64,000 nucleotides of DNA, taken from contig OZ024758.1 of assembly GCA_964016885.1 (NCBI GenBank), positions 37,076,001 through 37,140,000 of the forward strand, read 5' to 3'. Source of the stretch: Eledone cirrhosa (taxonomy: Eukaryota). The notes beneath the pieces were generated by a model. That model worked only from the letters and a program-made list of their open reading frames with translations, did not search any database and had not been told where the DNA came from. The position numbers and the translations under genes were made by a program. Shown in pieces: positions 25,349 to 64,000 of this stretch. How positions within the stretch are numbered: the first letter of the stretch is position 1; every line of letters begins with the position of its first letter.

Positions 25349-25406
25349 ATACCTGATGATATCACCGGATTCATACGGAACCCGGTCATTGAAATGATCA
25401 TAGTAT
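25349..25406 (+). ncRNA. Minimal type I hammerhead ribozyme motif (family A)
   Basis: atac-CTGATGA-[tatcaccgg...ccggtcatt]-GAAA-tgatca-TA-gtat then AATAAA; stem I atac/gtat; palindromic stem III. Confidence 0.8.
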
Positions 25407-25792
25407 AATAAACCTTTCAAGGATTTACACAAATCCAGCCTCCTGTCATTTCATTATAATATTTAACTCCGTAAAACAAAGACAGTTGAACTGCTTCACG
25501 TTGAGTACTCTCTATATTATTGCATTACGATTGACCATACGGAATAGACCAGCTCTATACAGTGGTGAACCTCATACCTGAATAAATATATATATGTATA
25601 TATATATATATATATATATATATATATATATATATATATATATACATATATATATATATATATAATGTAGGAGGTGAGTTTTATTGTAGTACAATAAAGC
25701 AATGCAGATATCGGTTAAGAAGCACTCTACAGTTTGTAGGACTGGAGTATACATAATATAAGATCAAAAGATGGTTAAAGGAGTTCCATGTA

Positions 25793-25859
25793 TTTTATTA
25801 TGCGCATTTCAAAAACAAACATCATCATGCAATAATATTTGTGTTTTCATCAGATAAAA
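25793..25859 (-). ncRNA. Hammerhead ribozyme motif (family B)
   Basis: Reverse complement of 25987-26053. Confidence 0.8.
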
Positions 25860-25986
25860 CAGGAGAACATGATATGAAGACTAAAAAACACTTGTGGATA
25901 GTGCAGTTTTAAATCAACATATGATATGTTGATTTAAAACTGCACTATCCACAAGTGTTTTTTAGCCTTCATATCATGTTCTCCTG

Positions 25987-26053
25987 TTTTATCTGATGAA
26001 AACACAAATATTATTGCATGATGATGTTTGTTTTTGAAATGCGCATAATAAAA
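25987..26053 (+). ncRNA. Hammerhead ribozyme motif (family B)
   Basis: ttttat-CTGATGA-[aaacacaaatatt...gatgtttgttttt]-GAAA-tgcgca-TA-ataaaa; stem I ttttat/ataaaa; palindromic stem III. Confidence 0.82.
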
Positions 26054-26093
26054 TACATGGAACTCCTTTAACCATCTTTTGATCTTATATTAT

Positions 26094-59098: not shown

Positions 59099-59134
59099 GT
59101 TAGTTATTTTCATATCTCAGCTTTTATCTCTCAC

Positions 59135-59790
59135 CAGTCCAGGTACTTTATTTTATCAACCCCAGTACATTACTGGTACTTTATTTTATCAATCCCAGTA
59201 CATTACTGGTACTTTATTTTATCAATCCCAGTACATTACTGGTACTTTATTTTGTCAACCCCAGTACGTTACTGGTACTTTACTTTATCAACCCCAGTAC
59301 GTTACTGGTACTTTATTTTATCAACCCCAGTACATTACTGGTACTTTACTTTATCAAGCCCAGTACATTCCTGGTACTTTACTTTATCAACCCCAGTACG
59401 TTACTAGTACTTTATTTTATCAACTCCAGTACATTACTGGTACTTTATTTTATCAACCCCAGTACATTACTGGTACTTTACTTTATCAACCCCAGTACGT
59501 TACTGGTACTTTACTTTATCAACCCCAGTACATTACTGGTACTTTACTTTATCAACCCCAGTACGTTACTGGTACTTTACTTTATCAACCCCCGTACATT
59601 ACTGGTACTTTACTTTATCAACCCCAGTACGTTACTGATACTTTACTTTATCAAACCCAGTACATTACTGGTACTTTACTTTATCAACCCCCAGTACATT
59701 ACTGGTACCTTACTTTATCAACCCAAGAACGTTACAGGTACTTTACTTCATCAACCCCAGTACGTTACTGGTACTTTACTTTATCAACCC
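59135..59790. repeat. 33-bp SINE-derived minisatellite, ~20 copies
   Basis: Unit ccccagtacrttactggtactttaytttatcaa equals the antisense SINE core; runs directly into SINE body at 59790. Confidence 0.93.
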
Positions 59791-60846
59791 TGTTAGGATG
59801 AAAGCCAGAGCTATAACTTCAGTAGGATTTGAACCCAGTTACGGCCCTTTACGTTCTGAGTTCAAATCCCATCAAGGTAAGCTTTGCCTTTCATCCTTAC
59901 TGGGTTGATAAAATAAAGTACCAGTAACACACTGGGGTCAATCAACACCCCTTCCCCAAATGTGTTGGCCTTGCATCTAAATCAGAAACCATTAAAATAA
60001 TCTCTAAATATTATTAGTTAGAAATATTAGTTAATAATTGTTTCTACGTTAGGCACAAGGCCAGCAATTACCCCAGTGAATTACTGCTACTTTATTTTAT
60101 CGACCCCGTAAGGATGAAAGGCAAAGTTAACCTCGGTGGGATTTGAACTCAGAATGGCAAGGGCCGTAACTCTATGCATCAAAGCATGGCGTCCGACCCT
60201 CCACTGATACTGCCAATCCACTGCCATTAATATTATTATTGACTAATAATATTAACTAATAATATTAACTAATAATATTAACTAATAATATTAACTAATT
60301 ATATTAACTAATAATATTAACTAATAATATTAACTAATAATATTAACTAATTATATTAACTAATAATATTAACTAATTATATTAACTAATAATATTAACT
60401 AATAATATATACTAATTATATAACTCTATGCATCAAAGCATGGCGTCCGACGCTCCACCGATACTGCCAATCCACCGAATAATATTAACTAATTCAAATC
60501 CCGCCGAGGTTAACTTTGCCTTTCATCCTTACGGGGTTGATAAAATAAAGTACCAGTAATACACTGGGGTAATTGCTGGCCTTGTGCCTAATGTAAAAAT
60601 TATTTAAATTATTAGTGAATATTATTAGTTGATAATATTAGTTAATATTATTAGTTAATATAATTAGTGAATGTTATTAGTTAATATTATTAGGTGATAA
60701 TATTAGTTAATATTATTAGTTAATATAATTAGTCAATATAATTAGCTAATGAGGTTAACTTTGCCTTTCATCCTTACGGGGTCGATAAAATAAAGTACCA
60801 GTAATGTACTGGGTAATTGCTGGCCTTGTGCCTAACGTAGAAACAA
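59790..60846. mobile_element. Cluster of about six SINE copies/fragments in both orientations
   Basis: Minus 59790-59836, 60039-60225, 60420-60478; plus 59837-59990, 60492-60598, 60751-60846. Confidence 0.85.
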
Positions 60847-61190
60847 TTATTAGTTCATATAATTAGTTACTATTATTAGTAAATATAATTAGTCAATATA
60901 ATTAGTAAATATAATTAGTCAATATAATTAGTCAATATAATTAGTCAATATAATTAGTCAATATAATTAGTCAATATTATTAGTCAATACTATTAGTAAA
61001 TATAATTAGTCAATATAATAAGTCAATATAATTAGTCAATATAATTAGTCAATATAATTAGTCAATATAATTAGTCAATATTATTACTCAATATAATTAG
61101 TCAATATAATTAGTCAATATAATTAGTCAATATTATTACTCAATATTATTAATAAATATAATTAGTCAATATAATTAGAAACAATTATAT
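60226..61190. repeat. 13-bp AT-rich minisatellites interleaved with SINEs
   Basis: (actaataatatta)n at 60240-60420 and (agtcaatataatt)n at 60850-61180; related as reverse complements. Confidence 0.9.
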
Positions 61191-61600
61191 TTTATCAACC
61201 CCAGAATGTTGGTTGTGTGGGTTTTTTATTTCTGTATGAAGTTCAGACAGACAGCCATACAGACACATGATATGAGTGTGCAACATCGTAGCTATGTTTC
61301 TGTCAGTTGAAAGCAAGTCTTTGTATTAACTTTTAGAGAAAGTCACACCCAGTTAAATTACATGACCTTAGGTAAGTGTATGGGAGAGACAGGAGGAGAG
61401 ATAGAGAGAGAGGGGGCGAGAGAGACCGAGAGAGGGAGATAGAGGGAGAGAAAGAGATGTGAGAGAGACAGAGAGAGAGGGAGAGAGAGAAAGTGGGAAG
61501 AATGGAGACTAAAAGTGGAAGAGGCAGAGAGATAGAAAGTAAAATGTAGTAGTAATTCTAATGTTGTATTATATATATATATATATATATATATATATGC

Positions 61601-64000
61601 AGAGGTTATATTTAATTTGTTGGGATTCAATAAGCTTAAAAATGTTTATAACTGATATAAAGCACTCAACAGTTTGCCTTGGTTGCCTTGAAATATGTAT
61701 AATAAAATAAATATGGTTTTATAAATATAGTTTCCATTTATTAATATATATATATATATATATATATATATGTATGTATAGGAAAAGAGTCAGGACCCCA
61801 ACTGCTGATCTCTGGCCGGAGCTCAGCTGTTGGGTTCCTGGCTCTTTTCCTATTACCCACTCTTCTACCCTAAGTATTGAGTACTCTGAGATATATATAT
61901 ATACACACACACACACACACATATATATATATATATATATATATGTATATATATATATATCCAAAATTAAAATTAAGGGTTGTCATGTCTGAGAGACATG
62001 CACCATGCGTAGAATAAGCTGAAAGATTAGATCCGAGCATTATATATCAACTAGAAATAGATTGACATATATATATATATATAATAATAAATACATGAAA
62101 CAATCACAGGGAATAATTTGTAAAGAATGTAGGCACACATAGCTAGGTAGGTAACTAATTAAAGCTTGACTAGAACTTCAAATATAGATACCTTTTAAAA
62201 TGATTAATCTCCTTTGTATATATTTCTTTAAGTAAGAAATATATTTCACCTATTAATCCGTAAATCACAGCAGTTAAATTCTTGGATGTTCACCAAATGA
62301 GAAGAAAAATAACCATCTGCGTTTACACAGCAAATGCAAATCTGCGAATGATATGAACCACGTGTTGCATTTTTTTAAAAATACACTCGTTGAACAACGT
62401 CATCCCAGTGGCCTGAATAGGACCATCGACAGCCAGAAATAGCCAGAAATATAAATATAAATATATATATATGTATATATAATATAAGATCAAAAGATGG
62501 TTAAAGGAGTTCCATGTATTTTATTATGCGCATTTCAAAAACAAACATCATCATGCAATATTATTTGTGTTTTCATCAGATAAAACAGGAGAACATGATA
62601 TGAAGGCTAAAAAAACACTTGTGGATAGTGCAGTTTTAAATTCGCATAATAAAATACATGGAACTCCTTTAACCATCTTTTGATCTTATATTATGTATAC
62701 TCCAGTCCTACAAACTGTAGAGTGCTTCTTATCCGATATCTGCATTGCTTTATTGTACTACAATAAAACTCACCTCCTACATTATATGTATATATATATA
62801 TATATTCTCTTTTACTCTTTTAACGTGTTCCAGCGATCCAGTTGAGGCCATGCTGGGGCATGCCCTTGTTACACATTCTTTCTCCAACCTGTGTTGGTTG
62901 GCCATTCGGCAAAGAGGGGGTTCAATGTTGCTGCCCTTAGGTTACCTTCGAACCATGCTGTGGGCTCATCCAGGATCCTGGTAACAGGGTGTCGAGATGT
63001 TCCTTGAAAACATCCACGTCCACACCATGCAGATCTCTCAAATTCCTTGGCAGCTTGTTGAAGAGGTGAGGGCCTTTGAACCCCAGGTTATTGTAATACC
63101 TGCTCCTTATTCTGTATATATTTATAAGTATATATCTATATATGTGTGTGTGTGTGTGGTAGGAAGTATGGTAAGGAACGAGGTGGACCATAACGCACCA
63201 GATCACGCGATACTTTGGTTAGTAGATATATATATATATGTGAGTGTGTGTTAAGCTATTCTATTAAATCTACCCCAGGATATCACTGGTACTATATTTT
63301 ATCAACCCCTGAATTATGAAATCATTTCATTTTACGTCCCCTTTTCCCTGCTTGCAAGAGTGGGACAGGAACTGATTCTGGCTTGATTTCTACAGCTTGA
63401 TGCCCTTCCTAAAACCAACCTCATTTACAGTGAGTGCTGGGTGATTTTTTGCCGTGGCACCTCTACGACCACTTTACAGTGGAATGATAGGGACTCCAGT
63501 CCCTATCATCTCATTTCTACAGCTGAGTAAACTGGAGCAATTTGAAATAAAGTGTCTTGCTCAAGGAAACAACACATTACCCGGTCTGAGAATTGAACTC
63601 ACAACCTTTCGATAAAGAATAATACAATTATAGAGATTATAAAAGATTATAAAAGAATAATACGTATTATTCCTTTCGAATACAATAAAAGGCCTGCTGT
63701 TACAACTTTGGTATTTATTGAGGATATTGTGAATCGTTTAACCCTTTAGCATTTAAACCGGCCATATCCGGCCAGAAATCTCTCACTTTTTTCTGTTCAA
63801 ACCGGCTGTAACTAGCCACTCATACTGACGTTAAGGTATTCTTCTGAAAATAAATACTATCAAAATCTCATAGATTCAATATTATGTGAGATAACTATAT
63901 AAGATAAAGTGTTTACTGTGAAACTACAATAGTAAATATAGAGTAATGTAAGTGCTAAAGGGTTAAATAACTTAAATTTACAACTTCAAGGTAAAACTCA
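61601..64000 (+). repeat. Recent segmental duplicate, copy 2 (includes family B hammerhead 62519-62585 minus and piggyBac MITE 63742-63962)
   Basis: Near-identical to 56244-58659; runs off window end. Confidence 0.96.

Follow-up and report, generated by a model that had tools for sequence, protein, structure and literature searches.

Hammerhead motifs and Penelope-like element remnants in a TA-rich window of contig OZ024758.1

The window described here is a stretch of 64,000 nucleotides from contig OZ024758.1 (assembly GCA_964016885.1, positions 37,076,001 to 37,140,000 of the forward strand). It contains hammerhead ribozyme motifs and remnants of Penelope-like elements (PLEs), and our subject is the relationship between the two. 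Directly observed were the ribozyme folds, inverted pairs of arms, two 3' termini, TA flanks and two endonuclease remnants. Motifs are named by start position and strand. They were labelled family A (25791-, 25985+, 44229-, 57180- and 62517-), B (27131- and 27233+), C (31400- and 33443+), D (25349+), E (40888+), F (53620-) and G (53271-). The features are collected in Table 1.

Table 1. Hammerheads, insertions and PLE remnants in the window. LINE, long interspersed nuclear element.
Feature	Position	Strand	Description
3' PLE fragment	24126..24870	-	CX4CxxC linker and C-terminal GIY-YIG endonuclease (open reading frame 24342-24773; PF01541, E 6.5e-5); short inverted arm 24790-24870
Family D unit	24871..25585	+	hammerhead 25349-25406; tail motif at 25501; TA-run end
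Family A insertion 1	25665..26093		head-to-head inverted pair, centre ~25923; between TA runs; arms 153/154 identical
Hammerhead A	25791..25861	-	stem I of 8 bp; C.U mismatch in the 16-position stem II; stem III a palindrome, AUGCGCAU; predicted to be cut after A
Hammerhead A, inverted arm of insertion 1	25985..26055	+	
Family B inverted pair	26993..27338		centre ~27209; between TA runs; arms 124/126 identical
Family C inverted insertion	31350..33537		hammerheads 31400-31445 (-) and 33443-33488 (+); stem III ACAAUGU; arms 110/112 identical
Inverted arm of Hydra element	33545..35625	-	duplicates 36856-37884 (1014/1019) and 38441-39440 (971/983), non-coding 3' region
Hydra-clade PLE linker and endonuclease remnant	35626..36415	+	CxCX5C, CxxC and CxH; no CCHH; one frameshift near 36155
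Hammerhead E	40888..41039	+	9-bp stem I with bulge; 115-nt stem II; palindrome ACGAUCGU; TA run after
Family A insertion 2	44105..44415	-	single tailed arm; hammerhead 44229-44299; in TA run behind LINE 3' end
Hammerhead G	53271..53306	-	minimal type (GAA-ACGU-U); 3-bp stem II
Hammerhead F	53620..53704	-	U4C in the core; stem III a true hairpin (monomer type)
Family A insertion 3	57136..57443	both	tailless minus arm with hammerhead 57180-57250; inverted arm begins inside stem III and carries the tail
Copy of family A insertion 3	62473..62780	both	hammerhead 62517-62587 (-)

Hammerhead motifs in the window

A sequence-only reading of the window had proposed 13 hammerhead motifs in seven unrelated families. 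All 13 are present, 0-3 nt from the starts then given. We applied a strict type I descriptor, comprising exact CUGANGA and GAAA, a stem I of at least 4 pairs, a stem II, a palindromic or hairpin stem III and a UH site. Ten matches were obtained in positions 21001-64000 (25349+, 25791-, 25985+, 27233+, 31400-, 33443+, 40888+, 44229-, 57180- and 62517-). In 200 block-wise dinucleotide shuffles the mean was 0.035 and the maximum was 1, which bears out the proposed hammerhead identity. The other three motifs have one defect each: a C.A mismatch within stem I (27131-), U4C in the core (53620-) and a stem II of only 3 bp (53271-). The complete core (CUGANGA, GAAA, UH site and stem I closure) is found in 12 of the 13, the exception being 53620-. 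Positions such as U4 and N7 follow the conventional hammerhead numbering. The motifs are not 13 independent items. Because three pairs are arms of single insertions, and 57180- and 62517- lie in one duplication, we count 8 or 9 insertion events, depending on whether F and G arrived together.

Folding energies of the motifs as monomers are mostly unremarkable (z -3.4 to +0.2 for seven listed motifs, with 27233+ at -3.4). Exceptions are 27233+, at the lower end of this range, and hammerhead E (z -6.15). The palindromic stem III predicts cleavage as a dimer; duplex energies are -10.5 for A, -10.0 for E, -7.2 for D, -3.2 for B, -1.7 for G and -1.6 for C. AATAAA had been placed at or right after stem I in families A to D. 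This is correct for A, B, D and 33443+ (background 0.0024 per position) but not for 31400-, the other C motif.

Families A, B and D are not unrelated. Beyond the core they have in common CAC at stem II positions 4-6, a C.Y mismatch at the fourth pair, the layout U-GAA-AU-4nt-AU-A and a tail motif. Judging from these sequences, A, B and D are one related hammerhead subtype. Nine of 15 paired positions are altered on both sides across the three families (4 sequences). This was reached by 0 of 500 shuffles, and slid controls gave 0-3; the test is partly circular, the structure having been drawn from the same four sequences. Scanning for the subtype pattern gave two matches in metagenome contigs, both by chance (one in a bacterial TolC-like gene, one without folds), and none in viral and prokaryote collections.

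Two patterns recur in the tails, both picked post hoc from the sequence. TWGAGYRCTY occurs 10 times in the window against 1.7 expected, always within or beside hammerhead-bearing units (four in A tails, one each in B and D, and four in a duplicated unit at 56.3-56.5 kb). CTCCAG-N5-6-AWACTG occurs five times against 0.02 expected and is confined to A and B tails. An 11-nt stretch of the B tail, spotted by eye, has a single occurrence in the 584-kb supplement of PMC8557442. It lies in the tail of Hydra-1_Crog, with GCTCCAG before it at the same spacing. The tail motif is also present in Hydra-1_Crog, and similar sequences occur in Hydra-2_Amil and Hydra-2_Ajap (PMC8557442).

Further sequences of this kind were seen. 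A decayed hammerhead of the A/B/D layout, absent from the earlier list, lies at 56287-56350 (+), with a copy at ~61644-61707; it has a stem I, a CUGAUAU core, GAA-AUAUGUAU-A and a TA-run end. A unit of ~115 nt at 56424-56540 (+), copied at ~61774-61890, lies between TA runs and forms a long imperfect hairpin (-57 kcal/mol) followed by the tail motif. Half-cores reading CUGAUGAGU, with traces of stem II, occur at 46390-46451 (-) and 51060-51113 (-) within an old duplication (45289-46457 / 49965-51119, 73%). These are possibly long-decayed hammerheads.

Anatomy of the insertions

In the first family A insertion a tail of ~85 nt is carried by the minus arm (25665-25752) and the plus arm is tailless. 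The second has the longest 5' extent, its 5' end being approximate. The third was duplicated within a 2.4-kb repeat (56244-58659 = 61601-64000, 97% identical). Two A insertions lie in a TA run directly behind the 3' ends of one LINE family (43750-44251 and 57297-57776). The LINE parts are 85% identical and the A parts 96% identical; hence, these were independent hits on similar targets. In family B the hammerheads occupy 27131-27185 (-, with the stem I mismatch) and 27233-27287 (+), and an 87-nt tail is found on the minus arm only.

In both A and B the 3' end takes two fixed forms, one short and one extended by the tail (83-88 nt in A, 87 nt in B), and either form abuts TA runs. Exactly one arm is tailed in 3/3 independent A/B inverted pairs; family C is tailless on both arms. 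Conversely, 5' ends are ragged and differ between insertions. A 5'-truncated inverted copy is joined at the 5' end in A (two of three independent insertions), B, C, the Hydra element and the endonuclease fragment at 24.1-24.9 kb. Arms within an insertion are 98-99.5% identical, compared with 95.5% between A loci. The (TA)n context noted earlier was confirmed for the 3' ends of A, B, C, D, E and G; F has no such flank. Where copies of one family share a strand, 5.3 kb or more separates them. When folded, read-through transcripts of the A pair (-271 kcal/mol) and of the B pair (-206 kcal/mol) each give one hairpin.

The remaining families differ in detail. No endonuclease was detected in the ~2 kb between the C hammerheads (tblastn, PLE-like queries), and an 87-aa frame in this body had no usable Atlas match. 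The common part of the C arms (33423 / 31463) begins with GGTATGT, which resembles a 5' splice site, 22 nt ahead of the core. PLEs are known for intron retention. No TA run separates the D unit from its left neighbour, the inverted arm of the 24.1-24.9 kb fragment, to which it is directly joined. Hammerheads F and G, of differing types, lie on the same strand with no TA break (53275-53628, -), and their predicted cuts are 353 nt apart, with G downstream. If both were active, a retrozyme-sized fragment could be released. An endonuclease end guessed by eye between F and G was unsupported by tblastn and Pfam. An inverted repeat around a TA run at 54716-54837 is possibly a pair of element ends joined tail to tail.

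Sequencing reads were compared with family A only. Four of 24 listed runs were aligned to 44108-44470 (363 bases), those with small shares being left aside. Matches comprised 3626 contigs in X1, 46 in X4 and 4804 reads in X22; X15, guessed to be RNA, gave 0 records, and the listing named no RNA run as a carrier; neither result carries weight on expression. Family A is very abundant in reads. Depth in X1, a sum and not a copy number, is about 0.5-1.6 million over hammerhead and tail and drops 5'-ward (1.04 M at 44342, 0.46 M at 44368, 0.33 M at 44394, 0.16 M at 44407 and 0.03 M at 44420). TA abuts the short terminus, 44191, in X1, X4 and X22. Of six listed joints, three connect opposite strands and three skip bases; two further joints run in opposite directions. 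The opposite-strand joints fall at five different places. No joint was head-to-tail, although a unit longer than the 363 bases tested would stay hidden.

The hammerhead at 44229-44299 has 14 variable positions among 40 listed of 53 rows, the variants being unphased. Eight keep the pair, three are in loop II, one is N7, one makes the first stem II pair A.C and one breaks the stem III palindrome. No core base besides N7 was among the variable positions listed. A.C as the first stem II pair is common in published minimal hammerheads (PMC4209133). The palindrome-breaking variant, at 44243, is nearly confined to X22; there, 44246 is the end of 1141 molecules, probably one restriction-site-associated DNA stack. 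G.U pairs are enriched among the variable pairs (4/4 vs 4/19, p 0.008). We give this little weight, as a G.U pair becomes a standard one through any transition. Covariation, the lack of which had been proposed as a refutation, was found across A, B and D, with the partial circularity given above; within A, pairing is kept at eight of 14 unphased variable positions.

Relationship to Penelope-like elements

Two PLE endonucleases are recognisable, and the window contains no PLE reverse transcriptase (RT). Homologs of the 24342-24773 product are RT proteins with a C-terminal endonuclease. A non-canonical, decayed hammerhead-like stretch without an Rfam match lies at the 3' end of this CX4CxxC-type fragment (24155-24200, -). 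We assign the second remnant to the Hydra clade because it has CxCX5C, CxxC and CxH and lacks CCHH, as defined by Craig et al. 2021 (PMC8557442). Two homologs of this endonuclease were found (E about 1e-30 to 1e-33), the one that is named being from Argonauta hians; this agrees with a cephalopod host but is no proof of it. Pfam left the Hydra endonuclease and its full-length homologs unnamed. The inverted arm of the element is ~99% identical to the downstream parts; therefore, the copied RNA included at least 2.5 kb of non-coding, microsatellite-rich sequence. A non-coding context is accordingly no proof of non-autonomy. Along the strand of the Hydra endonuclease, E is the first hammerhead further downstream, and the two likely belong to one element. 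The stem II of E (40904-41018, +) is a mostly paired hairpin far exceeding those of the published Hydra table (PMC8557442).

Published Hydra-clade PLEs share with the element here the linker and endonuclease motifs, TA targets and inverted 5'-truncated copies (PMC8557442). Penelope-13_HM, for example, has an inverted 5'-truncated copy with motifs on both strands. Hydra hammerheads in File S2 of that paper, including Hydra-1_Obim of Octopus bimaculoides, have U-GAA, a palindromic stem III of 7-10 nt and a preference for TA. U-GAA and a long palindromic stem III are common to the motifs here, C and E being similar in stem III. There are also differences. The 115-nt stem II sets E apart, and the A, B and D palindromes begin with AU, not AC. 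By eye, none of the seven hammerheads here equals the Hydra-1_Obim motif. Published Hydra elements are shorter than 3 kb, whereas in the element here the non-coding 3' sequence alone runs to at least 2.5 kb.

Likenesses extend to other PLE hammerheads (Cervera and De la Pena 2014, PMC4209133). G fits the minimal consensus, and the hairpin stem III of F resembles the fungal and protist type. The layout of the Drosophila willistoni hammerhead, U-GAAA-U AGCU AU-A, is that of A, B and D, as is the Aedes layout. Conversely, the stem II CAC and C.Y mismatch have no counterpart in the rows compared. In metazoan genomes such hammerheads number thousands, in many families and mostly as single truncated copies, and some form opposite-strand pairs 100-700 bp apart (PMC4209133). 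Octopus was not found in the one supplementary file of that paper searched.

A signature of inverted pairs, tails, 5' truncation and TA targeting has been published for PLE insertions (PMC8557442, PMC4209133, PMC11167929), and the link to Penelope made earlier stands. We conclude, with a probability of roughly 0.76, that the 13 motifs, as type I and minimal hammerhead folds, are the 3' ends (pseudo-long terminal repeats, pseudo-LTRs) of 5'-truncated PLE copies of about seven families. Several of the parent families probably belong to the TA-targeting Hydra clade. Hammerheads at PLE ends in TA repeats are an arrangement already known, and most likely no new class of ribozyme element is involved.

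Several observations weigh against this conclusion. Rfam gave no hammerhead among 150 listed of 367 matches in the window, and targeted scans of C, D, B and F with G returned only Hammerhead_3 (11.8 bits, E 8; gathering threshold 48.5). The Rfam check suggested earlier thus failed to recover the motifs; its other output was microRNA noise, with no hammerhead or twister call. Tails of 83-88 nt are two to three times longer than the 30-40 nt of published PLEs (PMC8557442). The 5' ends of the three independent A copies fall within about 60 nt, and X1 depth halves near 44355-44380; both could also be obtained from a short non-autonomous unit. D adjoins an endonuclease of another type, whose own 3' end is without a clean hammerhead. 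The sequence between the Hydra element and E (39440-40888) is outside inverted-arm coverage. With 154 PLE-like proteins (Hydra- and Nematis/Neptune-like, with no Poseidon type) as tblastn queries, the best scores in the regions flanking A, B, C, D, F and G stayed at shuffle level in 8/8 cases; upstream of G, Pfam gave no match.

A mechanism can be proposed on published precedents. PLE insertions are heavily truncated on the 5' side, where a truncated inverted copy is often attached, and may or may not have a tail (PMC8557442). In vitro, the PLE protein of an anole cleaves AT-rich DNA and extends the two strands, and its reverse transcription begins at two internal sites, the spacing of which equals the tail (PMC11167929). 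Here, the GIY-YIG endonuclease of the element would cut a TA run. Both DNA ends would prime reverse transcription near the RNA 3' region, each at one of two start sites, and the site used would decide whether an arm has the ~85-nt tail. cDNA synthesis would mostly abort within a few hundred bases, after which the two cDNAs would be joined head to head. The single tailed arm of each A/B inverted pair is a genomic trace compatible with such two-ended priming from two RT start sites. The hammerhead would be retained in nearly every copy merely through its position, 50-150 nt from (just upstream of) the start sites. Dimer cleavage of the parent transcript via the palindromic stem III would probably be slow or protein-assisted. 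The anole hammerhead is protein-dependent, and insertion in vitro proceeds without it (PMC11167929). In place, most of the copies in this window are probably inert, since same-strand copies of a family are so far apart and read-through RNA of a close pair is one long hairpin.

Alternative origins and wider context

Non-autonomous parents are possible for A, B, C and D. A, B, D and perhaps C would then be dispersed, short non-coding elements lacking an open reading frame (ORF), which retain a hammerhead and tail of PLE type and depend on a PLE protein acting in trans for their copying. The failure of tblastn to find an upstream ORF, the clustered A 5' ends, the steep fall of A read depth upstream of the hammerhead and the 3626 X1 contigs on 363 bases would all be accommodated. 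PLE-derived non-autonomous elements with hammerheads also exist (bioRxiv 10.64898/2026.07.22.740005). However, A sequence in X1 reaches at least ~44415, and depth declines stepwise with no single edge. Heavy 5' truncation is normal in PLEs (PMC8557442), and, given the kilobases of non-coding 3' sequence in the Hydra element, absence of an ORF near a hammerhead is expected. We therefore consider this origin unlikely. A more specific version is similarly doubtful. In this, A, B and D would be related, ORF-less, dispersed ribozyme SINEs (short interspersed nuclear elements) of octopods, mobilised by Penelope. They would be marked by the subtype hammerhead (CAC, C.Y and an 8-nt AU palindrome) and by a ~85-nt tail with a conserved hairpin motif directing the start of the Penelope protein, with A present in tens of thousands of copies. 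Were it correct, head-to-head A pairs would be a large source of perfect double-stranded RNA hairpins. Cephalopods are known for RNA editing.

A retrozyme-like mobilome, as the sequence-only reading had suggested, fares much worse. Non-LTR retrozymes have type I hammerheads and non-coding surroundings (Cervera and de la Pena 2020, PMC7229834; Li, Clavereau and Pollet 2026, bioRxiv 10.64898/2026.07.22.740005), as do the motifs here, and the two likely have a common origin in PLE pseudo-LTRs. The low GC content and animal host would also suit retrozymes, and the F and G cuts, 353 nt apart on one strand, are inside the 170-400 nt size of retrozyme RNA (PMC7229834). Such elements would be series of tandem units, which consecutive hammerheads cut into monomers that are then circularised and amplified. 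They are head-to-tail repeats with a hammerhead in each unit (PMC7229834), whereas the copies here are scattered and inverted, with ragged 5' ends. Of the window's 24 tandem-repeat rows, none has a hammerhead in its unit, and the six listed A joints are inversions and deletions (a unit above 363 bases would be hidden). F and G, moreover, are of different families and each is defective. We regard a retrozyme origin as highly improbable.

Chance matches in AT-rich, palindrome-rich DNA might explain the mostly ordinary fold stabilities and the silence of Rfam, but are refuted by the shuffle null and the two-sided pair changes across A, B and D, and variants among A copies spare the invariant core.

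The known catalogue of PLE hammerheads gains several unlisted families, from a probable octopod, that Rfam overlooks. In Octopus vulgaris 31 PLE families were recently active (PMC13282606); hence, several families in one TA-rich window are expected. The repeat library of that species could already contain families A to G, and the supplements of bioRxiv 10.64898/2026.07.22.740005 may list invertebrate families. Our literature search, with subscription papers and Repbase outside its scope, found no survey of cephalopod hammerheads besides PMC8557442. A candidate recognition signal is the tail motif, which several families here have in common with the Hydra element of a copepod. Family A, if truly non-autonomous, would be an abundant repeat previously unclassified.

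Other repeats make up the surroundings. A LINE with an RT (PF00078, E 2.7e-28) lies at 41550-44058 (+), and a second RT fragment (E 6.5e-7) at 51840-52890 (+). A frame at 49082-49630 (+) encodes a C2H2 zinc-finger array. Positions 1-20966 are occupied by 390 copies of a 54-bp satellite. Minisatellites of 112, 96, 89 and 33 bp are found at 21658-22335, 23008-23980, 46657-47778 and 59142-59790, and the 96-bp array repeats part of an RTE-like coding end.

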